DNA of 64,000 bases from Plasmodiophora brassicae (GCA_036867785.1 CP145417.1:992001-1056000), one strand, 5' to 3'; counted from the first letter of the stretch, positions 1 to 40,521 are shown. The notes: generated from the letters alone by a model not told the origin. Numbers and translations are program-made.

Positions 1-1227
1 GTCGTGATGCAATGCAGGCATTGCTGACACATCGCTTCAATGTCCTGATTGATCTTGGTCCAGAAGAAACGCTCCGTGATCATCTGCTTGGTTACTTCCG
101 ACGCACGATGACCAGCGCTTGCGCAATGGCCAATGACCAGGATTCGAAGGCGTAGACTCTTGCAGTCTTGATGACAAGGAATAAGAACGGCTTTGCTCTC
201 GTTCTTCCACAGACGATCAGCTTCATCGAAGTACACCCCGTCCTCGATCTTCTCCTCTCGTGACAGAAAGCGTTGCGAATCGCGGATCTCCTTTTCGGTC
301 GGCCAGCTGAATTCAGGATGTTGCCGAGGAGTGACTCGCAAATCGTCCATCTGCATGATGCGCGTTGCTCTACATGACAGTGCGATGCGACCAGCTCCCC
401 ATCGGGTCAGAAGGTCTGCCCATACGTTGTCGGTTCCAGCGATCTCCTTCATCTTGTAGCTGAAGCCTTGTAGATGCAATGCCCATCGCTCTAGCTTCTG
501 AGCCGTATGCTTCTTGATCTCCGAGTTCCGGTCGAAGATGAACGTCAGATTGCGATGATCGCAGTAGAGCAGGAACTCCCGGGATGTCTGCAGTAGGAAA
601 TCACCGCGCTGCGTAGCGTTGATGATCGCGGCTGCCTCCTTCTCGATCGTAGGCCATCTGATCTCTGCACCTGAGAAGCGCTTGCCGTAGAATGCGAGAG
701 GTTCATGTCGTTGTTCGCATACAGGCAGGTTGACGTCTTCCATCGGGATCTGCGTAACCACCGCCGACCATGCTGCATCACTGGCGTCCGTGAACAGGCA
801 GGTCTGATAATCCTCCTTCGGAAACGCCAGCTGAACGTGTTGAATCAAAGCGAAGCGCACGTCCTCGAATGACTTGCTGTGCTGATCGGACCAGCCCAGT
901 GCGTCCAGCGAGACACATGATGGCGATGATGATCGAATGCGCTTGAGCTCCTCCTTGGCAATGTCAAGCAGCTCTTGCAGCGGTCGTACTATACTTGTGT
1001 AGCCGGGTACGTGGGTACGCATCCAGTTGGCCGCCCACAGAAACTGCTGCAGGTCCTTAGCGGTCTTCTGTCACGATCAGGCAAGCTGATGCAACGAACG
1101 CTTTGACGGACTGGCGAAGTCCGTCGCGGGGTTCTCGGTTTATTCCGGACAGTCCTCACATAATAGTCCCCTTCTAGCGATGGGCCTCTGACGGGTCCGG
1201 GATAGAAGGGCAGACGGATGGCCTCTG

Positions 1228-1475
1228 ATGGGTCGCAGACGAACGGACAGGCGGATGAGCAGGCAGACGGGCGGGCAGACGGACGGACAGACGAACGGAC
1301 AGGCGGATGAGACGGGCGGGCAGACGGACGGACAGACGAACGATGAGCAGGCAGACGGGCGGGCAGACGGACGGACAGACGGACGAACGGGCAGACGGAC
1401 GGACAGACGGACGAACGGGCAGACGGACGGATTAGCAGACGGACGGAGAGACGGGCGGGCGGGCAGACGGACGAA
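1228..1475. repeat. Degenerate (GACG/GGAC/GCAG) low-complexity microsatellite inside element 1
   Basis: Runs such as gacggacggacagacgaacgg and gcagacgggcgggcagacgg; almost T-free on the + strand. Confidence 0.85.
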
Positions 1476-1504
1476 CAGGTTTGGTTAGTGACAGCACGTC
1501 GCAA

Positions 1505-3200
1505 CCGAGGCCTTGACGTTGTGCAGGAGATGCCGAGGCGGGATCGACACTGGCGGACGGACGGACGGGTAGAGACAGCAAGCGGTCAGGGAAACACCGG
1601 CGGCCTGGGAGGCAAACAGCACGGCGGGACACGCGCACTCTGGAACTTGGACCAGCTGCGACCGAGGCCTTGACGTTGTGCAGGAGATGCCGAGGCGGGA
1701 TCGGCACGGACGGACGGGAAGAGACAGCAAGTGGTCAGGGGAACACCGGTGGCCTGAGAGGCATACAGCACGGCGGGACACGTACTCTGGGACTTGGACC
1801 AGGTACGACCAAGGCCTTGACGTTCTGCGGGGGATGCCGAGGCGAGATCGGCACGGACGGACGGACGGGCGGGAAGAGACAGCAAGCGGTCAGGGGAACA
1901 CCGGTGGCCTGAGAGGCATACAGCACGGCGGGACACGCACTCTGGGACTTGGACCAGGTACGACCGAGGCCTTGACGTTCTGCGGGGGATGCCGAGGCGA
2001 GATCGGCACGGACGGACGGACGGGCGGGAAGAGACAGCAAGCGGTCAGGGGAACACCTGTGGCCTGAGAGGCATACAGCACGGCGGGACACGCACTCTGG
2101 GACTTGGACCAGGTACGACCGAGGCCTTGACGTTCTGCGGGGGATGCCGAGGCGAGATCGGCACGGACGGACGGGAAGAGACAGCAAGCGGTCAGGGGAA
2201 CACCGGTGGCCTGAGAGGCATACAGCACGGCGGGACACGCACTCTGGGACTTGGACCAGGTACGACCGAGGCCTTGACGTTCTGCGGGGGATGCCGAGGC
2301 GAGATCGGCACGGACGGACGGGAAGAGACAGCAAGCGGTCAGGGGAACACCGGTGGCCTGAGAGGCATACAGCACGGCGGGACACGCACTCTGGGACTTG
2401 GACCAGGTACGACCGAGGCCTTGACGTTCTGCGGGGGATGCCGAGGCGAGATCGGCACGGACGGACGGACGGGCGGGAAGAGACAGCAAGCGGTCAGGGG
2501 AACACCTGTGGCCTGAGAGGCATACAGCACGGCGGGACACGCACTCTGGGACTTGGACCAGGTACGACCGAGGCCTTGACGTTCTGCGGGGGATGCCGAG
2601 GCGAGATCGGCACGGACGGACGGGAAGAGACAGCAAGCGGTCAGGGGAACACCGGTGGCCTGAGAGGCATACAGCACGGCGGGACACGCACTCTGGGACT
2701 TGGACCAGGTACGACCGAGGCCTTGACGTTCTGCGGGGGATGCCGAGGCGAGATCGGCACGGACGGACGGGAAGAGACAGCAAGCGGTCAGGGGAACACC
2801 GGTGGCCTGAGAGGCATACAGCACGGCGGGACACGCACTCTGGGACTTGGACCAGGTACGACCGAGGCCTTGACGTTCTGCGGGGGATGCCGAGGCGAGA
2901 TCGGCACGGACGGACGGGAAGAGACAGCAAGCGGTCAGGGGAACACCGGTGGCCTGAGAGGCATACAGCACGGCGGGACACGCACTCTGGGACTTGGACC
3001 AGGTACGACCGAGGCCTTGACGTTCTGCGGGAGATGCCGAGGCGAGATCGGCACGGACGGACGGGAAGAGACAGCAAGCGGTCAGGGGAACACCGGTGGC
3101 CTGAGAGGCATACAGCACGGCGGGACACGTACTCTGGGACTTCGACCAGGTACCACCGAGGCCTTGACGTTCTGCAGGAGATGCCGAGGCGGGATCGACA
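1505..3200. repeat. Tandem array, 11 full units plus a partial unit of 147/155 bp
   Basis: Unit starts (ccgaggccttgacgtt) at 1505, 1662, 1809, 1964, 2119, 2266, 2413, 2568, 2715, 2862, 3009 and 3156. Length variation comes from an internal (GGAC)n tract. Central units are near-identical and edge units diverged. Confidence 0.95.
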
Positions 3201-5362
3201 GGAGGGTGGTGGGATAGGTAGTCCGTCAAAATGTCACGATCAGGCAAGCTGATGCAACGAACGCTTTGACGGACTGGCGAAGTCCGTCGCGGGGTTCTCG
3301 GTTTATTCCGGACAGTCCTCACATCTTCGGGCGTGGCATGCTGGTCAGCGCCTCGATGCGTTCTGGATCATGCCGAACTCCTTCTCGCGAGTATATCCTG
3401 CCGCACCACTTCAACTTGCGAGCGAACAACGTGCACTTGTTCGGGTTCAGCTTCAGGTTGCGCTCGCGACACCGCTCCAACACTCGTGTCAATTGATGAA
3501 GAAGGTCTTCCTCCGACCTCGCGAATCCGAGTATGTCGTCAATCCAGATGAGCAAATTCTCCTTCATGTCGTCGAAGATAGCAGCCATTCGGGCGTGGAA
3601 CTGAACCGCCGAATTCATTCCCCCTTGAATGCTCCTCGTAGGCGTGAATACAGCGTCGTCCGTCATGAGGCTGAAGATTTCCTGACACTCCTTAGCCAAA
3701 GGCATCAACCAGAAGCCCTTGAAAGCATCAATCGTGAAGAAACAAGTCATGCCGGAGAGCTTGCGCGTAACAGCCTCAACATTCGGCATCGGCCATGCTG
3801 TGGGAACACACCGTGCGTTCACTTGACGAAGATCGACACATAGACGATAGCCATCGCCTTTCGGTTTCTTGACGACTAGGACTGGACTTGCCCATCGCGA
3901 GTTCATGTTCATGTAGACAAGACCGTTCTCCTTCAGCATACTGATCATGTCGTCTAGGAACTCCTTCTGCTTAGGATTGTAGAACCGAGGCTTGCACCGG
4001 TACGGAGTAGCGTCCTGCTTGAGTTGTGTTACCATCGGTTCGACATCGACAGGCTTGTCTTGACCCAGGCGCGTGCGGAATTCGTTCAGATGTCGTCGCA
4101 AGATCAATCGTAGCTTAGCAACTCCTTGACGAGACATGCCATTGAGACGTGCTTGGTGTACCATCCGGTTACAAGAAGCTTCGATCTCGTGAGCATTGAT
4201 CGGTCCCAAGTCAACTTCACTTGACGACGGTTCCATAGAGTCCGACTCTGGTACTGGGTAGTGATCTCCTCGCAACGTTGCCATTCTCGCGGCAATTCGC
4301 CTCACGGTCTCGATACAATCGACATCGACTGCGGCACATCCTGAGAGCGTATCCATCTCGGTGCATCCTGACGCGATGATGTTCTCGAGTTGCTGACGCG
4401 GATTGATGCCGAGAGTCGTTATTTAGCAGATTGTCACCGAACAGGATCACAGGAATCTCGTCGCAAACGTAGTAGGTCACATGATACAGCGTCAAATTGC
4501 CAACTTCGGTCTCCAGGATCGTGATTGGAACTTGCACCGTGCGCGTTATGGTTCCGATAACTTTGCCTTCTGCTGAGGTGACGTCTCGTTGTTGAACGTC
4601 GCGGAACGTGGCCTCTTTCAACTGGACAGCGATATGGCCAGGCATGATGTTGCCTCCGCGGCAGCCGGAATCCAACTCGTACGGAACACGTATGCCTTCC
4701 AGCACTACGCGTTGTAGATCATCGACAGTCTCATTCGCGATTTTGGCCTCAATGTCTTGGGTCGTCAGGCCAAGACTCGCTGGAAGCTTCTTGATCTGCG
4801 ATTCGATCCTTCCTTCCAGGTCGTCATCTGTCAGCAGGTCGACATTGGTCAGGAACAGGTGATTCAACGCGATGCAGGTCAGCTGCGGCGTGGTAAAGCA
4901 GAATCGTATCGCTTGAGGCTTGATCCTCGCGGCTTCCGGACGGTTGCCCTCACGGTCGATCACCACTGCACAATATCGATCGTACTGCTCTTTCAACTTC
5001 AAGATGGATGTGGAGTCCAACTTCGCGACCCGTGGCAGGATGCTGACATCCTCGTCCTTGACACCCATATGCTCGTCCGTGCTGGACGTCGTCTCCGATG
5101 CCATGGCGCAGCGTCTCGACGTGGTGCGGGACGAAGTCAGACGTGTGGGATCAGACAGAGTGCGCACTGTAGTCAGTCTCGAGCCAATATCCCAATGAGC
5201 TTTATCATCCATCCCATCCACGGCGTCGGCCATGCCATCACAGTGGAGCTAAATCCGTGCAGGCCCCCTTTCCTCAGGACAGCAGGACCCCCTCCTCACT
5301 CCTCAGGACAGCAGCATCTTGAGGTCGGGCACGAGACGCTAAATATAGAGCCCCGCTCTACA

Positions 5363-8110
5363 AATCGCACCCTCCTGGCAATGGCTTTCGTCCTGCCAGG
5401 TTGGTCCTTCATTGCATCCTCGTATATCCTCTGTAACAGGTGTACCTTCCTGTTGTACTCAGGGATGGACCTACTCATCCACTGAGTTGCCATAAGGAAT
5501 TGTTGCAAGTCCCTTGCCGTCCTCGGCTGTGGTATCGCCATTAAAGCCTCAATCCTAGCAGGATCGTGCCTTACCCCTTCTGGCGTGAATATCCTTCCAC
5601 AGAACCGAACCTCTGTTGTGAAGAGCTCACACTTCTCCACGTTGAACTTGATGCTGTGCCGTTCGGCTAGCATCAGAGTCCGTTCCAACGTTCGGAACCA
5701 ATCATCCTCCCTTTGGGCATGCCCCATTAGATCATCGATCCATATGATTAGTTTGTGGAACATAAGTTCCCCGAACACCTCAAACATCCTCCCTTGATAC
5801 TGAGGGGCGGAGTTCATTCCCCCCTGCATCGACCTCGTTGGCTTATACACCCCCTTATCTGTCATGAAGGAGAAGATCTCCTGACACGCTTCATCCAGCG
5901 GCATCATCCAGAAGCCTTTGAACGCGTCTAGCTTAAACCAGAACCTCGAGCCTGCCAGGTTCCTCAGTATCGCCTCCTGATGTGGCATAGGCCACGCCAC
6001 GGCGACACATTTGGCATTAACAGCTCTGAGATCAACACAGAACCGCTTTCCGCCCCCTGGCTTCGTCACCACCACCACCGGTGAAGCCCACTTCGCGTTG
6101 TAGTTTTCAACGACTAGGCCATACTTCTTCAATTGGGCGACGAATTCCTCCATGAAAGCACTGTCCTCCATACTGTACTTTCTGGCTCGGCACCTGTAAG
6201 GTTCCGCATCCGGTTTCAGCTCCGTGACAAATGGTGTAACCCTGGCTGGACCATCAGGTCCAATGCTCATACGCCAAACGTCCCTATATCTTCTGACGAG
6301 TTTCCGAAGCGATTTCCCCATCGCTTGCGGTAGGCCATTCCTCAATGCGCGCTCGACCATCCCGTCCATCTCCCTTTCCAGGGAGTCTGTGGAATCGGTT
6401 CCGATCCTCACATCCTCTGTTTCCTCTTCCTCCCCTTCCCAGAGAGGTGGCATCTCGTTTGCCATATTGTGCACTTCATCCATGACGTCATTCCCCTTCT
6501 TCGGCGTGCTCTTAATGAGTACGTCCAGGGCCTTCTTTGGGTGGATACCCAAGTCGTCCAACAGCCTCTCCCCTAGGATTATTTCCTTTTCAGGAATGTC
6601 CCATACTAGGCATCGGCGCCGGCGAGTGATCAGTTCGCCTGCCGTCGTCGTCAGTCCCAGATCCAGTATCATCACATGGTAGGCTGTGTGCTTCGTTTCT
6701 CTGTCTACCAGACAGAACGTTTCCGGCTTCTGGAGGTTCTCCATTGTTAACAATGGGTCCCGCTCCATTAGCTCGCGCGCTATGGTCAATGGCATCAGAA
6801 CGTCAACCGATGTCGCTCCACTGTCCAGAACCCCAACGTAGTCTTCCTCATGTCCGTTTACACGAACGACTACTTGGTCCCCTGTCCTCTGCGCCCCCTC
6901 CGACACTCTTCCTACCACTGGAAGCCATGGGTACTCTGACAAGTCGTCATCTTTATCAGATTTGGCCTTACGGGGTCCATCCCTTCCCGTTGGCCCCTTG
7001 CGGCGATCCTTCAGCAGGTCTGCGACCTGCTTCTTGGTAGGCTTCTTCGGGCAACGAAACGCTGGATGTCCAACCTCGTCACAGTTGAAACATCGCAGGT
7101 CCTTCCGGTGTCGTTTCGTGTCCCGGCCTCCATCGCCTCCTTCATCCGTCTGCGCCCCTCGCTTCTTTGGGGTGGGTTTGACCTTTCCCTTCCCCTTGCC
7201 ATCCTCACGTCCCGGCTCCATGTACAACATCGTCTCCTCATACGATGCAGCCCGTTCCTTCAGCACCCGATAGAATTCCAAAGGGTCCTTCTGGAGATCG
7301 GTCTGGCGCTTCATGACGAGGGTCCGCATGAGCGCTTGTAAACCGGATGGGCGCACAGCACCCAGTAGGTACTTGACCAGGTTCTTCCGTCCCTCGCGGG
7401 ACGTGAAGAGGTCCTGCCACCCGTTGCGCGCGACCAATTCCTCGTACTGCTGCACGAGGTTCACGACCCTTGCCGCTGGTGTGGTGATGGTCAGCTTCAT
7501 CGCCAGCTTCCGCATCTCCCGGTCGATGTTCGCGTCCGTCGAGCGATCCTGCTCGAGATGCCTCTTCATCCAGTCCATCAGGTCGCTCTCCGTCACCCCC
7601 TCGGCGTCCGTGCCGAGTTCCCACTTGCAGATCGCCCTGAGCAGACCGGGGTCGATCATACTCCTCACTGACCGTGGGATCTGGCCCTTGGCATTCGGAT
7701 CGTCCCGGAAGTGATTCCGATACGTCTTCAGCTCGGCCATGAACGTCGTGACGGCCTTGCGGTCCATGCTCTTCAAGGTCGGCGCCTTGTTCATCTGCAG
7801 GACGATCGTTGAGCCTTGCACGCTCTGTCCTTGTTGTCGATCATCGACGTCATCTTCCAGCAGCATCTCCTGCGCGGTGGCCACCATCGCGTCCTTCTTT
7901 GAAACCTTCCCCGAAAGGATGTTCAAGAGATCTCTGTGACGTCCCAACGGTGATGGTATATCAGCCGTGTAGTATAATCGTCTGTGTCCCCGACCTGCAG
8001 CTCCCACGGACGCCGTGCGGACTCCGTGCGCACTCCGTGCATGTCCGTCATTCTTAGGGCGGCCTAGCCGGATCACAGCTATTCTTGTCTTATAGCTTGG
8101 AGCCGGCACA
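5363..8110 (-). mobile_element. Ty3/Gypsy family B copy 1 (5' LTR 7935-8110, gag-PR-RT), interrupted at 5362 by Gypsy A
   Basis: Near-identical reverse complement of 23460-about 26187. 176-bp LTR. CCHC knuckle CFNCDEVGHPAFRC, LDSGA protease, RT. Identity ends at KAIARRVR. Confidence 0.95.
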
Positions 8111-8236
8111 ATACGCTGTGTGGAGGGGACGCCGGGCAGCCATTATACAATTCCTGGGGCACAACGCTGGCACCGGTGTACCATCGAGAAATGAAGACTG
8201 TATTGCATTGTGCACGTCGACGGTGTCGCGATCTCT

Positions 8237-18671: not shown

Positions 18672-20703
18672 TGGCGTTACAAACGGATCACACCCAATAA
18701 TTGGTCTGGCAGCTGGCCTCGGCGTCGTGACTCAACTTGCCATCCGGGCCTTTGCACTGCGCAATTTTGCGGCGTTGCGCGCGTTGTTTTGGCTGTGCCG
18801 GCACGGTTCTAAAAATATCCGCCTGCGAATTCCGGATAGCACCGAGCCGATGCAGAGCTGCAACCTGGCTGGTGCGCCTTGTAATCCGGACCGCTCTACA
18901 ACCTGGACCTGTACGTGCATCCTGCAACGGGATGGAGGTGGACACAACGACGCCGCAATGTGCGTCCTGACATCGCCGTCGCTTCCGCGGCTGGACGTCA
19001 TTGACGTGGCCGATGGAGGTATGGCAGGCTTCCGCAGCAGTCGGCCGTGAACCAAACGAGCAATGTGCGATGCGAGCGATGATCTGCCATCGACTCGTAT
19101 CTGGGGGCTTTACCGCGTTCCGAGAGGAGTATCGGCTCTTGAGATATGCGATTCCGGACTTTTGTCATATTTCGACCAAATATGTCGCCATGTGACCCCA
19201 ATATGCCATCATGCGACATATTTGGTGCTATAAATAGACCCGTGTCATTCCAATGAAGGTTCCCGAATGTATTCTTTAGATCCAGCCCATGCGCGTGCAC
19301 TGTTTGACTTGCAAGGATCCCTCCAAAGAGAAATCCGTGAGACAAGCTGCACGCTCGTCCGATTTCTGGTCTTTCAGTATGGAGAAGTCTGACTCAACGA
19401 CTGAAGTATTCGCGAAGACGGACGCAAGGCCACCGACGAACGCGCACAGGTCTGGGTAATATCGGCCCAAGTCCTCGCAGGACCATGCGTCGTCGAACGA
19501 CACATCCTTGCGTTTGGTACCGTCTGGTCCAGGTGCGTGTAGTCGGTTCAAAGCGTCCTTCAAGTCGGACTGGCGACGGTGTCGTTCTCTCAGTTCACGA
19601 TGCTGCCGTGAGATCTTTTCAATCTTGTGTAGGTCCCATGTCGACTCGAGTCTATCGTGGAACTTGTCGATTAGGTAGACGAGTTTGCGTGGCTCGATCT
19701 CAATCAGGTCAATTGGGAGAATCGGGAACCTTTCGGTCGGCATGGCTGCATTCATTTCATCGCGCTGGGCGCTGATGCCCTTGATCTTTGTATAGGTGTC
19801 AACGAACATCTGGGCGATGCAACTGAACACTCTTTCGCGATCTTCGCCCTGAACGGCAGGGATGACCTTCTTGAAGATATGGGTTCCACCGTGATCAATG
19901 AGCAAGCCCTCAATGTGGTTTCCGGAAACGACATACCCATTGTGGCGTATCGTGTTCGATTCAGACGATGACTGGCCGGGTTCATCACTGTCGTCATCAG
20001 ATCCGCCGCCTCCAGCACCGATGCGCTTGATCCAAGCCAGCTTCATAATTTTCTCAGCCAGCGATTCGACCTCGTCTGCCTGCTCGTTGACAGTGGTCTG
20101 TCGTCCTTGTAGTTTCCTCGTTGATTCGTTAATCGTCTCTGACAGCGCGTTCACCGCGACAACGAGCAGCTGGACGTCGGGGGTCATCTTGTTTCCACCA
20201 GGCTTATCGTCAAGCAATGCCAGGATCTCCGTCAAGTGGTCGAGGAAGAATTTGGTAACGTTGAACATCGACGCCCAGCGCGTCTTGGACAGTGAAGGAC
20301 AAGCTTTGCCAAGTCTAACAGACACAGACGGCTGATGCAGATACGCTATCATCTTTGTCAACGTGGAAAAGAACGCCCCACTATATAGCAAAGTATACGC
20401 AGCCTGCATCACAAGGTCAATCTGATGCAAGGCGCACCAGACCCGAATAAATCCAGGCTTAGCCACCTGACTCAGGTGCGTTACGACACCGGAAACGTGC
20501 CCAGTCATGTTCGCGGCACCGTCGGAAGAGCACGCCAGAAGCTTATTCTGCCAAGATCGGCAGAGAACACCAAACAATTTGCAGACCATGTCGAACATGG
20601 CCAGGCCGGTGTGACTTTCGAAGAATGGCACGGCCATAACATGAAGGTTGAGCTGGCGACCTTCAAAGCAGCAGCGAACGCGAACGTCGATGTACGACGT
20701 ACC

Positions 20704-22638
20704 TGTCATGAGTCATCTCCACCACCATGACTCACGCCACTCACCTTCCGGCATCTAGCCACCTTCCGGCACCAAGCCACGTTCCGAGACCAAGGCCTTC
20801 ACCAGCCGCGCCCTGGTCCTCAGTCAGCATTCTCATGTCTACTCGATACACCGCGTGATCGGTAGTCATCGCACACTGTCGTGCACCAGCGTTGTCAGGT
20901 AGTTCTCCACATTTTTTTTTGCGATGAACCAACCGACACGAAGGTGGAGAAAAGGGCTCCTAACCATATCCTCTTCCGCGCGATCATTGAGGTCCGACAA
21001 GCACGGCCTCTCCAACAAGCAACAGCGCGATGCACGACACGCTAGATACCCGCATGCGCCCGCTGACTCCATGCAGGATATCGTCAAGCGCCGTCATCAA
21101 CACGACCCCCGGTTCAGAACCGTACCATCCGCGCCGGACGCAAATCCACCGGCCGGTACCCGACATCATCGGGGAGACTTTCATCCACATGGAAGTCGCT
21201 CTTCCGGCACAACAACCGGCACCATTCCAGCCGTCGCCCCCGTTCCGCATTCACCGTACTGGGTACCTCTGCCCGCGAATCTCCCGAGGTTCCACGAGTT
21301 CTATTGTTCAACTTCCAGACGCAACTGTCTACAAGCGCAGATCTTCCGTCAGCCACATCTGCACGTCGTTCACGATCCCTAGTGAACGGCGCCTCTTACG
21401 ACCCTCCTAGCCTGCCCTGGGTAGAGTTTTCTACAAAGTCTTCTCCAGCGGCATTACCGGCTCCACGCCACCCTCATCATCCGCATCAATGGGTCTCAGC
21501 CGTCTCCGGCGCTGAACATCCCAACGTATATGGCAACGACATCGCCATCGTCCTCGGTAACGACATCACCGACGGTCCTACCGGCTCCACGCCACCCTCA
21601 TCATCCGCATCAATTGGTCTCAGCCGTCTCCGGCGCTGAACATCCCAACGTATATGGCAACGACATCGCCATCGTCCTCGGTAACGACATCACCGACGGT
21701 CCTACCGGCTCCACGCCACCCTCATCATCCGCATCAATCGGTCTCAGCCGTCTCCGGCGCTGAACATCCCAACGTATATGGCAACGATATCGCCATCGTC
21801 CATGGTAACGACATCACCGACGGTCCTACCGGCTCCACGCCACCCTCATCATCTGTATCAATCGGTCTCATCGACCTCCACTCAACGACTTCAACCGGCT
21901 CCTCGCCACCCTCATCATCCGCATCAATCAGTCTCAGCCCAGGAATGTGCCACTCCGGCTCTGAACGTCCCAGCGTATATGGCAACGTCATCGGCATCGC
22001 CCACGGTAACGACATCACCGACTGCCATCGAACAGACCTAGCGGCATCACCGCCACGAATGCACATCCACTCGTTTTCTTGACGTCCACGGCATTGATAT
22101 CGCCGCCCAAGCGCGGACAAGCAAATTTACACTCAACAATGGCCCAGAAGTGTGCCATCTCCGACACTGAACGTGTCAACATCCAGGTCCGAAGCAGCTC
22201 CCGACACTTCTCTCACCCGCAACTCCAGAACCCTGTCACAGATTCTGCGAGTCCGAAACAAATATGAGCCGCGTCTCCAGCCAGATCGCACAGTTCTCAA
22301 GTTGCGAGCAAGCCCAATCACATCAAGCCGCACATCACGCGCACCATCAAGATTCACTTGACCCGCAACCTCATCAAGCCGCTCATCACGCGCACCTTCC
22401 ACCCCCACATCCCTTTTTGGCGGGGGATGATGTCATGAGTCATCTCCACCACCATGACTCACGCCACTCACCTTCCGGCATCTAGCCACCTTCCGGCACC
22501 AAGCCACGTTCCGAGACCAAGGCCTTCACCAGCCGCGCCCTGGTCCTCAGTCAGCATTCTCATGTCTACTCGATACACCGCGTGATCGGTAGTCATCGCA
22601 CACTGTCGTGCACCAGCGTTGTCAGGTAGTTCTCCACA
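20704..22638 (+). mobile_element. Non-autonomous LTR element 2 with internal tandem repeats
   Basis: Identical 208-bp TG...CA direct repeats 20704-20911 and 22431-22638. 5-bp TSD GTACC at 20699-20703 and 22639-22643. PPT GGCGGGGGATGA before the 3' LTR. No intact ORF. Confidence 0.93.
21456..22022. repeat. 124-bp tandem repeat (3 full units plus degenerate partial copies) inside element 2
   Basis: Equivalent ATGGCAACGA positions at 21530, 21654 and 21778; diverged copy near 21979. Confidence 0.9.
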
Positions 22639-23459
22639 GTACCTTTGCACGTGGACCCGTCGAGCGCCAACGAGAATGCCCAGACCGATTCACCGGACAG
22701 GATTGTCAAAATGTTCTGAAAACCGACAGCGCACGTGACCCGAACGTGGCGGGCGACGTTCTCCTCAGAAAACGAGCCGAGCTGGGTGCAAGCCGTGACG
22801 TCAACGGTGGCAGACCCAGCTCGAGACGCCATCCGAAAAGTCATTCCCGTGTCGATGAACTTCAGCGTCAGCTGGTACTGCTTGACCGGATGGACCAGGA
22901 CAACGTACTTCTGAAGTGCCTCGTCGAACGTGAATGGAGACATAGCCCGTGTATGGGTCGCGCTGCCAATTGCGCCAGGACGCCAAAGCAATCTCCCGAT
23001 GAGGATATCGACGATTTCCGGGTCGAAATGGAACCGTAATTCGCTGGACTGTCTCGGCATGAACGACGTGATCAAGCCGGCTGGCGACTGGTGACGGAAG
23101 AAGTTTCTCTTCTCATCCAACGATGGCAAGTTTTGGTACCGCTGCCACAGAGTGGCGTGTTGACTGTTCAGATGCTGGATATACTTGTGTGGGCGGAAGT
23201 CATTCTCGACCTTGTACGTGGTGGTAGTCGGTCGCTGTCCATGACGCCCGAACGTAACGCAGAACATGCACTTGGCCTGAGTGACCACACCACGCGACCC
23301 ATGAGCAGATGGCTTCATGCCGTACTGCACTTCATGATCGGACTGGAATGGAGTTCCTCCATCCCTCATCCGTTTGCTCGGGCGGCGGGTGTCATCGGAA
23401 AGACTATCGTCACCTGACGACATGGTTTGAGGGTGCCAACTGCAGACTGTAGAGGGTTC

Positions 23460-26400
23460 TGTGCCGGCTCCAAGCTATAAGACAAGAATAGCTGTGATCC
23501 GGCTAGGCCGCCCTAAGAATGACGGACATGCACGGCGTCCGTGGGAGCTGCAGGTCGGGGACACAGACGAATATACTACACGGCGGATATACCATCACCG
23601 TTGGGACGTCACAGAGATCTCTTGAACATCCTTTCGGGGAAGGTTTCAAAGAAGGACGCGATGGTGGCCACCGCGCAGGAGATGCTGCTGGAAGATGACG
23701 TCGATGATCGACAACAAGGACAGAGCGTGCAAGGCTCAACGATCGTCCTGCAGATGAACAAGGCGCCGACCTTGAAAAGCATGGACCGCAAGGCCGTCAC
23801 GACGTTCATGGCCGAGCTGAAGACGTATCGGAATCACTTCCGGGACGATCCGAACGCCAAGGGCCAGATCCCGCGGTCAGTGAGGAGTATGATCGACCCC
23901 GGTCTGCTCAGGGCGATCTGCAAGTGGGAACTCGGCAAGGACGCCGAGGGGGTGACGGAGAGCGACCTGATGGACTGGATGAAGAGGCATCTGGAGCAGG
24001 ATCGCTCGACGGACGCGAACATCGACCGGGAGATGCGGAAGCTGGCGATGAAGCTGACCATCACCACACCAGCGGCAAGGGTCGTGAACCTCGTGCAGCA
24101 GTACGAGGAATTGGTCGCGCGCAACGGGTGGCAGGACCTCTTCACGTCCCGCGAGGGACGGAAGAACCTGGTCAAGTACCTACTGGGTGCTGTGCGCCCA
24201 TCCGGTTTACAAGCGCTCATGCGGACCCTCGTCATGAAGCGCCAGACCGATCTCCAGAAGGACCCTTTGGAATTCTATCGGGTGCTGAAGGAACGGGCTG
24301 CATCGTATGAGGAGACGATGTTGTACATGGAGCCGGGACGTGAGGATGGCAAGGGGAAGGGAAAGGTCAAACCCACCCCGAAGAAGCGAGGGGCGCAGAC
24401 GGATGAAGGAGGCGATGGAGGCCGGGACACGAAACGACACCGGAAGGACCTGCGATGTTTCAACTGTGACGAGGTTGGACATCCAGCGTTTCGTTGCCCG
24501 AAGAAGCCTACCAAGAAGCAGGTCGCAGACCTGCTGAAGGATCGCCGCAAGGGGCCAACGGGAAGGGATGGACCCCGTAAGGCCAAATCTGATAAAGATG
24601 ACGACTTGTCAGAGTACCCATGGCTTCCAGTGGTAGGAAGAGTGTCGGAGGGGGCGCAGAGGACAGGGGACCAAGTAGTCGTTCGTGTAAACGGACATGA
24701 GGAAGACTACGTTGGGGTTCTGGACAGTGGAGCGACATCGGTTGACGTTCTGATGCCATTGACCATAGCGCGCGAGCTAATGGAGCGGGACCCATTGTTA
24801 ACAATGGAGAACCTCCAGAAGCCGGAAACGTTCTGTCTGGTAGACAGAGAAACGAAGCACACAGCCTACCATGTGATGATACTGGATCTGGGACTGACGA
24901 CGACGGCAGGCGAACTGATCACTCGCCGGCGCCGATGCCTTGTATGGGACATTCCTGAAAAGGAAATAATCCTAGGGGAGAGGCTGTTGGACGACTTGGG
25001 TATCCACCCAAAGAAGGCCCTGGACGTACTCATTAAGAGCACGCCGAAGAAGGGGAATGACGTCATGGATGAAGTGCACAATATGGCAAACGAGATGCCA
25101 CCTCTCTGGGAAGGGGAGGAAGAGGAAACAGAGGATGTGAGGATCGGAACCGATTCCACAGACTCCCTGGAAAGGGAGATGGACGGGATGGTCGAGCGCG
25201 CATTGAGGAATGGCCTACCGCAAGCGATGGGGAAATCGCTTCGGAAACTCGTCAGAAGATATAGGGACGTTTGGCGTATGAGCATTGGACCTGATGGTCC
25301 AGCCAGGGTTACACCATTTGTCACGGAGCTGAAACCGGATGCGGAACCTTACAGGTGCCGAGCCAGAAAGTACAGTATGGAGGACAGTGCTTTCATGGAG
25401 GAATTCGTCGCCCAATTGAAGAAGTATGGCCTAGTCGTTGAAAACTACAACGCGAAGTGGGCTTCACCGGTGGTGGTGGTGACGAAGCCAGGGGGCGGAA
25501 AGCGGTTCTGTGTTGATCTCAGAGCTGTTAATGCCAAATGTGTCGCCGTGGCGTGGCCTATGCCACATCAGGAGGCGATACTCAGGAACCTGGCAGGCTC
25601 GAGGTTCTGGTTTAAGCTAGACGCGTTCAAAGGCTTCTGGATGATGCCGCTGGATGAAGCGTGTCAGGAGATCTTCTCCTTCATGACAGATAAGGGGGTG
25701 TATAAGCCAACGAGGTCGATGCAGGGGGGAATGAACTCCGCCCCTCAGTATCAAGGGAGGATGTTTGAGGTGTTCGGGGAACTTATGTTCCACAAACTAA
25801 TCATATGGATCGATGATCTAATGGGGCATGCCCAAAGGGAGGATGATTGGTTCCGAACGTTGGAACGGACTCTGATGCTAGCCGAACGGCACAGCATCAA
25901 GTTCAACGTGGAGAAGTGTGAGCTCTTCACAACAGAGGTTCGGTTCTGTGGAAGGATATTCACGCCAGAAGGGGTAAGGCACGATCCTGCTAGGATTGAG
26001 GCTTTAATGGCGATACCACAGCCGAGGACGGCAAGGGACTTGCAACAATTCCTTATGGCAACTCAGTGGATGAGTAGGTCCATCCCTGAGTACAACAGGA
26101 AGGTACACCTGTTACAGAGGATATACGAGGATGCCATGAAGGACCAACCTGGCAGGACGAAAGCCATTGCCAGGAGGGTGCGATTGTGCAAATATGGATG
26201 GTCACCCGAACATGCGCTGGCATTCGAGAAACTGAAGATGGCAGTGGCGGACACGGTCCAACTAGCGTACCCGCGAAAGGACCGGATCCAATGCCTATTC
26301 TCAGATGCAAATGAGGTTAACAGCGCGGCGGTAGTCACACAGATTCCGCCTGAGGACTTGGGTAAACCAGTGCATGGGCAGCGACATGAACCGCTGGGTT

Positions 26401-28702
26401 TCGTCGGACACAAGTTCGCGGGCCCAGAGCGGAACTGGTCCACGGTGGAGAAGGAAGGGTTCGCGATCAAGGATGGGATTGACAAACTGGACTATCTCGT
26501 TACAACCAACGAGCAGTTTCGTTTGTTTACCGATCATAGGAATCTCGTGAGGATATTCTCACCAACGGACGTGTCAAAGCCAACGGCGCAGAAACTGCAA
26601 CGATGGGCACTGGACATACAGAGGGTCAACTACGTCATTGAACACATTGCGGGGGAGGACAATGTGTGGTCGGATCTTATGACGCGGTGGGGTGCACCGG
26701 ACGGTGGGCCTGATGACCAGCACCTAGAGGTACGCACGATCAGGAGGATAACGCTTCAAATTGAGGACGGATATCGGGTACGGCCGTTACAAAGGAAGGA
26801 ATTCCAATGGCCGACCGTGGACGAAATCCGTAAGGCTCAGAGGAAATGGCTCAGAGGAACGAAACGACCGAAGAATGGTGATGATCTCTTCGTCACAGGG
26901 AAGGGACAGGTGATCATACCAGACGAATGCAACGAGCTGAAGCTGCAGCTATGCGCTATTGCTCATGCGGGCGGAAACAGTGGGCATCTAGGACTGAAGG
27001 CCTCGTTGAGGAAGTTGGGGGAGTTCTGCCATTGGGCACACTGCGATGAGGACATGAGGACGTTCTGCAACGCGTGTTTGAACTGTCTACCGACAAGGGG
27101 CGGGGTTAGGATTCCCAGGCCATTGGGAACAGCTGTTCATGGTGTTAGGCCGAATCAGGTGATTCACTTGGATTGGCTATACATGATGGCGGCTCAGAAG
27201 GGCGGAAGACATGATCTGCAATGGAACCTGATAATCAGGGATGATCTGTCTGGCATGGTCAAGATTACTCCTGACCATACACCCAATGCGGAAACCACTG
27301 TAGAGGCACTGCTCGAATGGAGGGCTATCTTCGGAACGTTTGAGTTGATGGTGTCAGACATGGCGTCTTGCTTTCTGGCAAACGTTGTGAAGGAACTGGC
27401 GCGTCGATGTGGATTTGCTCATCACCCGACTGTTGCCTATGGGCATTACAGTAATGGATCAATTGAGGTGATCAACAGGAACTACTTGCAACTAGTCAGA
27501 GCACTTCTGTCTGAATTGCAGTGGGACAAATACGATTGGCCATGGTTGAACCACAACATTGAACACACGATCAATCACAGGTCGCAGGCGCGTACCAACG
27601 GGAATGCGCCAGTGACAGTGATGATGGGACGTCAACCAGACAACCCGCTGAAGCAAGTGTTCAAGAGGCCAGGGGATGAGAAGTATGGGGAAGCTACACT
27701 CTCAAAGGAGCATATTCAGGAGCTAGTCATGCAATTGCAGACGTCGCTGAATGAAATGCACAAGGGAGCAGTGCAGCAATCGAAGAAAATCCGAGCCGTA
27801 CACAGGAAGAGGAGCGACGCGTACCGACGAGCAACTGCACCGAACTTTCAGATCGGTGACTATGTACTCATCGGATTGCCTGAACCGGGTAAGGTTCCGG
27901 GCAAGAAGCTCTTTATGAAGTGGCGGGGCCTATATCAAATAACTGATAGCCACGAGAACTACACCTACGAGGTGAGGAATATGTTCAATGAGACGGACAC
28001 TCGAACCGTTCACGGGGACCGCGTTCGCCTCTATGAACATGGCAAAGTGAATGCCACTGAGGAACTGAAGCGACAGATGGATTATGACAATGAGCGTTTC
28101 GCCATTGAAGTCTTCAAGGACTGCAGGCACAGTCCGGAGACAGGGGAATTGGAATTGTTGATCGGATGGAAGGGTTTCTCTGAAGCGGAGGATTCATGGG
28201 AGCCAATCTGCAGGTTGGCGATGGATGTACCGAAGCTGGTGAAGGCACATGCCGCCAGGATGAGGAAGGAGAAACATCACCTTGCTGATGAGGTTAAGGA
28301 GTTACTTAAGGCGGAAGGAGTCCAGTAGGCTAGTCATGCTTTTTTCCCGGATGCGCGCTGGGTTATTTTAATGCCGACGGCCATGTGACGACAGAAGCCA
28401 AAACTGTGTTCTACGAAGATTGAGACTTAATTATGTTAATTAGACTATATTAAGGAGAAGACATGATTAGGATACACCACCACTGAAGACACCTGCAAGG
28501 AGGAGCATTTCGTTGAAGGAGGGGAATGTGCCGGCTCCAAGCTATAAGACAAGAATAGCTGTGATCCGGCTAGGCCGCCCTAAGAATGACGGACATGCAC
28601 GGAGTGCGCACGGAGTCCGCACGGCGTCCGTGGGAGCTGCAGGTCGGGGACACAGACGAATATACTACACGGCGGATATACCATCACCGTTGGGACGTCA
28701 CA
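23460..28702 (+). mobile_element. Full-length Ty3/Gypsy chromovirus family B copy 2
   Basis: 5' LTR 23460-23613 (154 bp) and 3' LTR 28527-28702 (176 bp), TG...CA. 4-bp TSD GTTC. PPT GAAGGAGGGGAA. Confidence 0.97.
23661..28328 (+). CDS. Intact single-ORF gag-pol polyprotein (CCHC, protease, RT, RNase H, integrase, chromodomain)
   Basis: CFNCDEVGHPAFRC; LDSGA; LDAFKGF/WIDD; FSDAN..EKE..TDHRNL; H-H-C-C zinc motif and HLDW..VSD..SIE; IGWKGFSEAEDSWEP. First ATG after the LTR is 23661. Confidence 0.95.
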   Translation: MVATAQEMLLEDDVDDRQQGQSVQGSTIVLQMNKAPTLKSMDRKAVTTFMAELKTYRNHFRDDPNAKGQIPRSVRSMIDPGLLRAICKWELGKDAEGVTESDLMDWMKRHLEQDRSTDANIDREMRKLAMKLTITTPAARVVNLVQQYEELVARNGWQDLFTSREGRKNLVKYLLGAVRPSGLQALMRTLVMKRQTDLQKDPLEFYRVLKERAASYEETMLYMEPGREDGKGKGKVKPTPKKRGAQTDEGGDGGRDTKRHRKDLRCFNCDEVGHPAFRCPKKPTKKQVADLLKDRRKGPTGRDGPRKAKSDKDDDLSEYPWLPVVGRVSEGAQRTGDQVVVRVNGHEEDYVGVLDSGATSVDVLMPLTIARELMERDPLLTMENLQKPETFCLVDRETKHTAYHVMILDLGLTTTAGELITRRRRCLVWDIPEKEIILGERLLDDLGIHPKKALDVLIKSTPKKGNDVMDEVHNMANEMPPLWEGEEEETEDVRIGTDSTDSLEREMDGMVERALRNGLPQAMGKSLRKLVRRYRDVWRMSIGPDGPARVTPFVTELKPDAEPYRCRARKYSMEDSAFMEEFVAQLKKYGLVVENYNAKWASPVVVVTKPGGGKRFCVDLRAVNAKCVAVAWPMPHQEAILRNLAGSRFWFKLDAFKGFWMMPLDEACQEIFSFMTDKGVYKPTRSMQGGMNSAPQYQGRMFEVFGELMFHKLIIWIDDLMGHAQREDDWFRTLERTLMLAERHSIKFNVEKCELFTTEVRFCGRIFTPEGVRHDPARIEALMAIPQPRTARDLQQFLMATQWMSRSIPEYNRKVHLLQRIYEDAMKDQPGRTKAIARRVRLCKYGWSPEHALAFEKLKMAVADTVQLAYPRKDRIQCLFSDANEVNSAAVVTQIPPEDLGKPVHGQRHEPLGFVGHKFAGPERNWSTVEKEGFAIKDGIDKLDYLVTTNEQFRLFTDHRNLVRIFSPTDVSKPTAQKLQRWALDIQRVNYVIEHIAGEDNVWSDLMTRWGAPDGGPDDQHLEVRTIRRITLQIEDGYRVRPLQRKEFQWPTVDEIRKAQRKWLRGTKRPKNGDDLFVTGKGQVIIPDECNELKLQLCAIAHAGGNSGHLGLKASLRKLGEFCHWAHCDEDMRTFCNACLNCLPTRGGVRIPRPLGTAVHGVRPNQVIHLDWLYMMAAQKGGRHDLQWNLIIRDDLSGMVKITPDHTPNAETTVEALLEWRAIFGTFELMVSDMASCFLANVVKELARRCGFAHHPTVAYGHYSNGSIEVINRNYLQLVRALLSELQWDKYDWPWLNHNIEHTINHRSQARTNGNAPVTVMMGRQPDNPLKQVFKRPGDEKYGEATLSKEHIQELVMQLQTSLNEMHKGAVQQSKKIRAVHRKRSDAYRRATAPNFQIGDYVLIGLPEPGKVPGKKLFMKWRGLYQITDSHENYTYEVRNMFNETDTRTVHGDRVRLYEHGKVNATEELKRQMDYDNERFAIEVFKDCRHSPETGELELLIGWKGFSEAEDSWEPICRLAMDVPKLVKAHAARMRKEKHHLADEVKELLKAEGVQ

Positions 28703-40395: not shown

Positions 40396-40521
40396 TACAT
40401 AAAGCACGACGGTCGGAAGCAGGAGACGCCCCCGAGCGAGGTTGAGTCACGCCCCGTCCCGCGACCGGAGGACGATGGTTGGTCGGTGGCAGCGTGCGCA
40501 TTCGCGTTTGGCGCTGTACAC

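Follow-up and report, generated by a model that had tools for sequence, protein, structure and literature searches.

A non-coding LTR element of Plasmodiophora brassicae with a tandem array as its interior, inserted into a Gypsy pol gene

How satellite DNA starts and how it spreads to new sites is still debated, and the link between satellites and retrotransposons in plants has been inferred from large autonomous elements. Classical TRIMs have LTRs of roughly 100-250 bp, and LARDs have long LTRs. In the cited description, a TRIM stays below about 1 kb and has a short interior without repeats, and a LARD is longer than 4 kb (PMC13570524). Tandem arrays are documented inside LTR retrotransposons, where most of them lie between pol and the 3' LTR; those of the plant Gypsy elements Tat, Ogre and Retand are described, in the sections drawn on here, as family-specific, element-borne, variable in length and able to seed satellite DNA (PMC7004042; PMC11963269; PMC10794571). 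The hallmark of Cassandra, Helenus/Ajax and the retrozymes, as given in the cited sections, is 5S rRNA, tRNA or hammerhead sequence in their repeats (PMC13570524; PMC4918200). Finally, arrays of the form LTR-interior-LTR-interior are described for tandemly arranged TRIMs (PMC6934838; PMC13570524).

The locus that we compare with these systems lies in a stretch of 64,000 nucleotides (GCA_036867785.1 CP145417.1:992001-1056000), called the window below. It comes from Plasmodiophora brassicae, the clubroot pathogen, a rhizarian protist with a compact genome of about 25 Mb; one host gene matches a protein of this species at 100% identity. Within a Gypsy pol gene on the minus strand we find an insertion of 2,255 bp, spanning positions 1069-3323, with an interior of 2,071 bp (1161-3231). 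The features are as follows, with the strand given where a feature has one:

3-1067, minus strand: downstream half of the host Gypsy pol (RNase H and integrase zinc finger), with its frame open as far as the edge of the window; RT_RNaseH E = 5.7e-23, Integrase_H2C2 E = 8.9e-10; paralogue residues 835-1189
1064-1068: left copy of the target-site duplication, TCTTC, read from the sequence; same as 3324-3328; the empty-site joint likewise has a 5-letter overlap
1069-1160: left terminal repeat, 92 bp, TGT...ACA; the 5' LTR for a plus-strand reading of the element; 100% identity to 3232-3323
1161-1234: unique interior adjoining the left LTR, 74 bp, the expected primer-binding-site region, with no TGG-start motif by the LTR
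1235-1478: degenerate GACG/GGAC-type microsatellite, G-rich on the plus strand (TRF)
1504-3197: tandem array, 11.3 units, in which a 449-bp higher-order block is duplicated exactly (TRF)
3198-3231: short unique tail with a purine-rich, polypurine-tract-like tract (sequence; X4 contig bridging into the LTR)
3232-3323: right terminal repeat, 92 bp (identity to the left LTR; 92-letter contig in X4)
3324-3328: right copy of the target-site duplication, TCTTC (sequence)
3328-4356, minus strand: upstream half of the host Gypsy pol (reverse transcriptase), its frame open to the insertion; RVT_1 E = 1.4e-19; paralogue residues 538-834; blastx 4209-3325

Compared with the systems above, the element is an unusual but recognisable variant of the known parasitic mini-retrotransposons. 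It resembles a TRIM in its short identical terminal repeats with TG..CA ends, its 5-bp duplication, its non-coding and multi-copy nature and its likely dependence on a helper. On the other hand, 94% of its interior is tandem repeat, a tRNA-type primer site was not found, and its 92-bp LTR is below the range of classical TRIMs; the TRIM label of the first-pass annotation also fails on length, since 2,255 bp stands against a usual limit under 1 kb. The non-coding interior between LTRs and the probable mobilisation in trans are shared with LARDs, but the element is half their size and has tiny LTRs. In size it falls between the two, above the limit of a strict TRIM and below that of a LARD. As in Tat/Ogre/Retand, the array is carried by the element and adjoins what would be the 3' LTR, a placement that here depends on orientation. 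However, those elements are 8-13 kb long and mostly autonomous or partly coding, whereas here gag and pol are absent, the array makes up nearly the whole element, and the host is a rhizarian protist rather than a plant. In tandemly arranged TRIMs, which also associate a small LTR element with tandem repetition, the whole element is the repeat unit through LTR-LTR recombination, whereas here an unrelated 147-bp unit is repeated inside a single LTR pair.

Cassandra, Helenus/Ajax and the retrozymes are, like this element, small non-autonomous elements of the LTR type with unusual non-coding content. We considered membership in these groups and rejected it, as Rfam gave no match at E <= 1 on either strand of 900-3500 and ARAGORN did not find any tRNA gene in the window. 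The left LTR, folded as plus-strand RNA, gives z = -2.27 with two hairpins.

The boundaries of the insertion are exact. The two LTRs are identical in 92 of 92 positions, begin with TGT and end with ACA, and are flanked by a perfect 5-bp duplication, as the first-pass annotation had described, which lies in the 4-6 bp range of LTR retrotransposons; a repeat finder reports 93-nt LTRs because a T comes next on both sides. Apart from 1069-1160 and 3232-3323, we were not able to find any LTR copy in the 64-kb window (blastn, word size 7). The same annotation had called the insertion fresh. A repeat of 92 identical bases says little about time, however, and so the date of the event is only loosely constrained.

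For the frame comparison we used an intact Gypsy polyprotein at 23523-28325 as the paralogue. Translated on the minus strand, the host half at 3328-4356 ends with ...SMPRP and the half at 3-1067 begins with KTAKDLQQFL. The two halves abut at residues 834/835 of the paralogue, between the reverse transcriptase and RNase H domains, and therefore pol was split without loss or gain; the earlier claim that excision restores the host frame is borne out. The locus is a nested cluster, in which one mobile element disrupts another.

Next, we asked whether the insertion codes for anything. A Pfam scan of four long frames did not reveal any gag or pol coding capacity, and no family has a self-sufficient passing stretch in the array frames. 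We examined the matches to DUF3188, zf-CCCH_tandem, TPIP1 and DUF6667 as candidates for a coding array and rejected them, since they come only from summed repeats, with no stretch passing alone. The long open frames in the array exist because 147 = 3 x 49 in GC-rich sequence. With its LTRs and target-site duplication, the insertion is a non-coding, LTR-bounded, retroelement-type insertion, as first proposed.

The interior consists of repeats to 93.6%. The first-pass annotation had read it as a GGAC microsatellite followed by 11 full units of 147 or 155 bp and a partial one. This make-up stands, except that the microsatellite is degenerate (1235-1478; TRF periods 4, 12 and 28 at 65-72% matches) and that one unit measures 157 bp. 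TRF calls the array at 1504-3197 with period 147, 95% matches and 11.3 copies, a count that comes from the assembly and whose array length the available contigs cannot check; an alternative call has period 449 and 3.8 copies. In order, the units measure 157, 147, 155, 155, 147, 147, 155, 147, 147, 147 and 147 bp, followed by the partial one (that is, seven units of 147 bp, three of 155 bp, one of 157 bp and one partial). Units 5, 6, 8, 9 and 10 are identical, as are units 4 and 7, and the block 1960-2408 is duplicated exactly, over 449 bp, as 2409-2857. The right LTR starts 34 bp beyond the array end, so that placement upstream of the 3' LTR depends on the orientation of the element. The 147-bp unit does not occur elsewhere in the 64-kb window, and neither the unit nor the leader has any similarity to either Gypsy in the window.

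To see the locus outside the reference assembly, we used public sequencing runs, all of them in contig form. The stretch or part of it is contained in 20 of the 24 runs listed (18 with at least half of its words; 11 studies). Contigs of four runs, X1, X4, X8 and X10, were placed on the window, two of which (X4 and X8) have an RNA label that is a guess; the true-RNA runs X19 and X20 contain 0.08 and 0.04 of the words of the stretch. Three of the four runs (X10 with two contigs, X4 and X8) have the empty-site joint, which leads from 1063 to 3324 with five shared letters. The empty-site contig of X4 is 3,226 nt long and has one difference across 741 nt of flank, and that of X8 is a diverged paralogue. 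X1, the best-covering run, does not have this joint, and none of the listed contigs in the four runs crosses the filled junctions 1068/1069 or 3323/3324; neither absence is evidence. The left LTR-interior junction is bridged by the contigs 1131-1267 (X4) and 1131-1245 (X8), and the right one by the contig 3193-3258 (X4).

Mis-assembly is common for tandem arrays, and the number of units is beyond the reach of the contigs. Potentially, then, the structure could be an assembly artefact, or the result of recombination between two separate solo LTRs around a pre-existing satellite. Against this, a 5-bp duplication without mismatch, a host frame that is restored exactly and the five-letter overlap at the empty site indicate a single integration, and both LTR-interior junctions are bridged by contigs from independent studies. 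We regard an artefact or such a recombination as extremely improbable; at most the unit count could be wrong in the assembly.

The same contigs place the LTR at other flanks. In X4 the LTR forms a separate contig of 92 letters, exactly 3232-3323, the result to be expected of an assembly graph in which more than one neighbour adjoins each end of the LTR. At the outer LTR borders, X4 (1160 and 3229, 255 nt each) and X8 (four contigs at 1068/1069) have loose ends that continue into unrelated sequence, and in X10 the LTR end is followed by a variant interior start. Another X10 contig, with its loose end at 3219, gives a hint of an interior of a different kind. The evidence for further copies consists of short contigs and depth, with no second full-length copy end to end. 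In metagenome contigs, a 34-nt piece of the LTR and a 34-nt piece of the unit gave no matches each, in a collection that probably does not hold this organism.

We then compared contig depth, which is not a copy number and is a poor measure of expression, at the LTR-interior junction, the passage from the microsatellite to unit 1, the diverged unit 1 and the array-to-LTR junction. Within each run the values are similar: the junction and edge depths are 2327, 1929 and 1989 in X4, 2138, 2558 and 1381 in X8, and 588, 620 and 532 in X10, compared with 29.8, 6 and about 270 for the respective Gypsy flanks. The zero depth of several array bins comes from collapsed repeat contigs, each placed at a single position, and this absence is no evidence. 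A rough sum in two DNA-labelled runs gives an array k-mer mass of 10-24 units per LTR-junction bin, of the same order as 11.3. Depth is even from the LTR-interior junctions to the diverged unit 1, which means that the array travels with the element. Together with the LTR at other flanks in X4 and X8, this supports the mobile satellite carrier proposed in the first-pass annotation. That annotation had also named a pattern that would speak against it, a unit confined to this locus while the LTR surrounds gag-pol elsewhere, and in the contigs of the four runs we do not see it.

One alternative is that a much shorter TRIM-like element inserted here and that the 147-bp array grew locally later, by unequal crossing-over or replication slippage. 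The identity of units 5, 6, 8, 9 and 10 and of units 4 and 7, as well as the unchanged 449-bp duplication, would agree with this, and the edge units are 5-10% diverged against an identical centre, which fits a recent amplification in the middle of the array. However, the amplification may just as well have taken place in a master copy that transposed later, or in the course of reverse transcription. Furthermore, in three runs the edge units and both junctions between the array and unique sequence match the depth of the LTR-interior junctions, far above the Gypsy flank, and the k-mer mass per junction in the DNA-labelled runs also argues against growth at this site. We therefore consider local growth unlikely as the origin of the array, while some change of the array at the locus may have followed the insertion.

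The repeats could also be functional cargo, either multimerised packaging or dimerisation signals that let the element out-compete the RNA of its helper, or a template for abundant small RNAs. Two observations could be taken in this direction. Contig depth summed across the element exceeds that of the host Gypsy flank by a factor of 10 to 1000 in each of the four runs, also in the two with guessed RNA labels, and adapter-joined contig ends lie inside the array in X1, X4 and X8, which may reflect only very high depth or short inserts. On the other hand, the RNA of the unit, folded in two registers on both strands, is no more stable than dinucleotide shuffles (z = 0.69, 0.87, 0.31 and -0.03), and Rfam does not recognise it. 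The unit lacks similarity to either Gypsy in the window and is therefore not a copy of their leader. The earlier suggestion of packaging or dimerisation signals finds no support in these values, and we hold a functional cargo to be very unlikely.

We think it likely, in view of the junctions, flanks and depths, that 1069-3323 is one copy of a multi-copy family of non-autonomous LTR retrotransposons, in which the array is transposed with the element and mobilisation depends on a helper. In such a family, the RNA of the element would be made from LTR to LTR, and the proteins of an autonomous LTR retrotransposon would package, reverse-transcribe and integrate it. The integrase of the helper would be of the type that gives 5-bp duplications, and one copy would have integrated into the Gypsy pol gene. 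The microsatellite and the 147-bp array would belong to the transposed unit rather than having been added at the locus. Array length and unit variants (the additional 8 bp, the 449-bp block) would shift through template switching of the reverse transcriptase, unequal recombination or both, and the family would in this way disperse short satellite arrays through the genome. Its most probable source may be an autonomous element that had an array between pol and the 3' LTR, as is the case in many plant Gypsy elements, and then lost internal sequence by deletion.

As for priming, we searched the 20 nt or so beside the LTR in both orientations and were not able to find a TGG-start motif of a tRNA-type primer site, and the intact Gypsy of the window likewise has no such motif. 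Tf1-type self-priming is not apparent either: between the LTR and the 40 nt beyond it, the longest complementarity is 6 nt, a length that 242 of 500 shuffles also reach. The same comparison gives 5 nt for the intact Gypsy (484 of 500 shuffles) and 8 nt for a second small element (25 of 500). The latter, at 20704-22638, has identical LTRs, a 5-bp target-site duplication, similar termini and an internal tandem repeat, and it is a parallel case to the element described here.

The cues for orientation point both ways. For the plus strand there are its purine-rich composition and the array next to the right LTR, and for the minus strand a TATA-like AATAAA near the LTR start and a GAAGGGGA tract. 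Both orientations offer a candidate polypurine tract: on the plus strand a purine-rich stretch of 22 nt, including four T's, that ends 10 nt before the right LTR, and in the opposite orientation a purine run of 9 nt at a distance of 6 nt from the LTR. In local alignments, no significant similarity links the LTR to that of the second small element or to that of the intact Gypsy; all three LTR pairs score within the range of shuffles in both orientations. The intact Gypsy has a target duplication of 4 bp, compared with 5 bp here, and we did not find an autonomous partner with common LTR, PBS and PPT features in the window. A Gypsy helper is plausible for this element.

In the Plasmodiophora literature accessible to us, including two genome papers, we were not able to find a description of such an element, and the supplementary repeat tables of these papers may list it as unclassified. 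Automatic repeat annotation usually leaves elements of this kind 'unclassified'. A recent preprint puts the number of complete or nearly complete assemblies of this organism at 55 (preprint 10.64898/2026.10.14.759018). With so many assemblies of a small genome, copy-by-copy counts of units, duplications and flanks could show when the arrays resize; whether this happens at transposition or afterwards would be directly readable from them.

One can go further and propose that the 147-bp satellite arises and spreads mainly through this element, that each retrotransposition carries an array of about 1.7 kb which template switching resizes in every cycle, and that the RNA of the element ranks with the most abundant repeat RNAs in infection. 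This seems to us possible but rather doubtful. If it is true, the element would be a clean natural system for the birth of a satellite and its dispersal by retrotransposition, and its insertions would contribute to the polymorphism among isolates. Elements of this kind may explain part of the structural variation in the repeat-rich regions of the pathogen.

The insertion at 1069-3323 of the window (2,255 bp), which we call the satellite-LTR element, has the anatomy of a non-autonomous LTR retrotransposon. Reading the sequence and applying repeat tools reproduced, almost to the base, the structure described in the first-pass annotation.

Parts of the satellite-LTR element
1064-1068 and 3324-3328: TSD copies, TCTTC on both sides (sequence read over 800-3700)
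1069-1160: left LTR, 92 bp, identical to the right LTR, starts TGT and ends ACA
between left LTR and microsatellite: unique stretch of the interior, 74 bp
1235-1478: degenerate GACG/GGAC-type microsatellite (TRF, 65-72% matches)
between microsatellite and array: spacer, 25 bp
1504-3197: tandem array, period 147, 11.3 copies, 95% matches
between array and right LTR: tail, 34 bp, containing a purine-rich tract
3232-3323: right LTR, 92 bp, direct repeat identical to the left LTR, starts TGT and ends ACA

The interior between the LTRs measures 2,071 bp, 93.6% of which is repeat. In order, the array units are 157, 147, 155, 155, 147, 147, 155, 147, 147, 147 and 147 bp long, followed by a partial unit; those of 155 bp have gained 8 bp within a short run of ACGG. 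One sequence is common to five units and a second to another two; divergence is greatest in the first two and the last two. The exact copy of a 449-bp block (1960-2408) at 2409-2857, together with the +8 variants, shows an array in rapid change. By what is established for retroviruses, a likely cause is a switch of template from one direct repeat to another while reverse transcription proceeds; the alternative is unequal recombination after insertion. Neither the LTR nor the array unit occurs again within the 64-kb window.

The satellite-LTR element is neither coding nor a known RNA. Long open frames cross the array because its 147-bp unit (3 x 49) is GC-rich and free of stops; Pfam matches in these frames were rejected, as no stretch passes on its own. 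Over 900-3500, with both strands searched, Rfam gave no match at E <= 1, and ARAGORN found no tRNA anywhere in the window, so that the element differs from Cassandra, Helenus/Ajax and the retrozymes. The proposal that the repeats are multimerised packaging signals found no support: in two registers and on both strands the unit folds no better than dinucleotide shuffles (z = 0.69, 0.87, 0.31 and -0.03), and it does not resemble the Gypsy elements in the window. For the LTR, the + strand gives a somewhat more stable fold than expected by chance (z = -2.27, reached by 2 of 200 shuffles), with two hairpins.

Next, we considered the insertion site, which lies in a minus-strand pol of a host Gypsy element. 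RVT_1 lies in the frame that ends at 3328 with ...SMPRP; the RNase H and integrase zinc-finger domains lie in the frame that starts at 1067 with KTAKDLQQFL... As a ruler we used the intact 1,601-residue Gypsy polyprotein at 23523-28325. Aligned to it, the upstream piece covers residues 538-834 and the downstream one 835-1189; thus pol is split cleanly between RT and RNase H, with the 5-bp duplication as the sole addition, and removing the element restores the frame exactly, as had been claimed. A chance 5-bp match (1 in 1,024) cannot account for the duplication and the exact frame restoration together. At position 998 the window has T where all four runs compared (including X1, the fullest match) read C, so this host copy has a private or rare base there. 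Upstream of the host RT, about 1.1 kb of sequence, 4210-5350 (-), holds an open frame (4220-5248) that has no Pfam match and does not resemble the gag/protease region of the intact Gypsy, so the host element has a 5' part that is either very different or replaced.

We then looked for other copies in public data. Two metagenome scans gave no match, the collection being probably without Plasmodiophora brassicae. Of 24 listed runs, 20 contained the stretch in whole or in part, and in 18 of these half or more of the sampled words were present; the matching runs span 11 studies and two coded organisms. Contigs from four of the runs (X1, X4, X8 and X10) were aligned to 700-3700. Since all four exist as contigs, depth is a rough guide, and strand and transcript ends are unreadable.

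A joint from 1063 to 3324, skipping 2,260 bases with five letters that fit both sides, is present in three of the four runs (X10, X4 and X8) and absent among the X1 contigs. In X10 it is carried by two contigs (depth 200.8), in X4 by a contig of 3,226 nt with one difference across 741 nt of flank, and in X8 by a diverged paralogue with 22 differences. This joint is the empty site, which is an allele or lies in a sister Gypsy copy of nearly identical sequence. A recent insertion is indicated by the identity of the LTRs, the perfect duplication, the host frames that are open to either side and the near-identical empty copy (1/741 nt). The earlier description of the insertion as fresh is weakly dated, because the 92 difference-free LTR bases bound its age only loosely.

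Several observations concern copies elsewhere. In X4 the letters 3232-3323, exactly 92, stand as a separate contig, the outcome expected of an assembly graph in which a repeat has several different neighbours on each side. Among the loose ends listed, unrelated sequence leaves the outer borders of the LTR at 1160 and 3229 in X4 (255 nt each), and four contigs run from 1068/1069 into unrelated sequence in X8. X10 shows the LTR end followed by a variant interior start, and it shares with X8 a variant joint inside the interior, so the family has subfamilies. Within each run, contigs for the LTR-interior junction, the microsatellite-first-unit junction, the diverged first unit and the array-LTR junction have similar depths. 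Junction and edge-unit contigs reach 2327, 1929 and 1989 in X4 (Gypsy flank 29.8), 2138, 2558 and 1381 in X8 (flank about 6) and 588, 620 and 532 in X10 (flank about 270). The ratio of summed array depth to the junction bins corresponds to 10-24 units for each junction in the two DNA-labelled runs, of the same order as the 11.3 units in the window copy, and to 42-234 in the two runs guessed to be RNA; these ratios are rough, as summed depth is not copy number. Together these results describe a multi-copy element that is present at other sites and whose array travels along. The multi-copy contigs and even junction depths thus support the proposed mobile non-coding LTR element with a satellite array; the contrary pattern, a unit found only here and the LTR elsewhere around gag-pol, was not seen in the run contigs. 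Several contig ends within 1099-3266 in X1, X4 and X8 run into sequencing-adapter sequence, a sign that in these libraries the element is covered at extreme depth or by very short inserts. If X4 and X8 are RNA, a label that is a guess, their high depth would be of interest.

By the standard route, the element would be transcribed from LTR to LTR, its RNA packaged and reverse-transcribed by the proteins of a helper, and the product integrated with a 5-bp duplication. Next to the LTR, neither orientation has a TGG-start primer site, and a search for self-priming of the Tf1 type gave no match; the intact Gypsy likewise lacks a canonical primer site. On its + strand the element has a strong purine bias (G 40%, T 11%), and the intact Gypsy is purine-rich on its sense strand. 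If + is the sense strand, the array sits directly before the 3' LTR, the position that such arrays occupy in plant Gypsy elements. In the minus reading, an AATAAA motif sits roughly where the intact Gypsy LTR has TATAAG, and the tract GAAGGGGA resembles the polypurine tract of that element.

Other elements in the window
20704-22638: second small non-coding LTR element, identical 208-bp LTRs, 5-bp TSD GTACC
23460-28702 (+): intact Gypsy, 154-bp LTRs, 4-bp TSD GTTC, 1,601-residue open polyprotein
5363-8117 (-): second, 3'-truncated copy of the intact Gypsy, 100% identical over 2,656 nt, abutting the host Gypsy

The intact Gypsy encodes RT, RNase H, an integrase zinc finger and a weak chromodomain match, and its identical truncated copy suggests very recent activity. 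It was ruled out as the helper because its LTRs are unrelated and its duplication is 4 bp. The second small element has LTRs of the form TGTCATGA...CTCCACA, each with an 18-bp repeat, and a 1.5-kb interior with a 24-bp repeat and 3.4 copies of a 124-bp repeat. The minus-strand open frame that it interrupts (19279-20703 / 22644-23474) keeps its phase from one side of the insertion to the other and has no Pfam match. Both small elements start with TGTCAYGA, end with CACA and have a 5-bp duplication, and they may use the same integrase.

In the window, mobile elements are nested in one another over 1-29000 (52-61% GC), and genes are dense and their open frames long over 30000-64000, at 57-71% GC (UBR-box N-recognin, TPR, Afi1/SPA). 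The gene at 48368-51472 matches a protein assigned by NCBI to Plasmodiophora brassicae, with 100% identity across 77% of its length. At 40396-45189 (+), an open frame of 1,598 residues consists mostly of long tandem repeats of 213, 306 and 378 bp (89-93% identity) and has no Pfam match.

The available sections of Plasmodiophora brassicae genome papers give repeats by broad class only (PMC11191646; 10.64898/2026.10.14.759018), and no such element was found among the titles and abstract openings listed in literature searches on this organism. TRIM and LARD definitions, and tandemly arranged TRIMs, are documented for plants in PMC13570524 and PMC6934838; the satellite-LTR element lies between TRIM and LARD in size, so the TRIM label initially given to it does not hold. 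Tandem arrays within plant LTR retrotransposons, and the growth of these arrays into satellites, are well documented (PMC7004042; PMC11963269; PMC10794571). The element joins these two known themes and takes them to an extreme, with LTRs and an array and nothing else.
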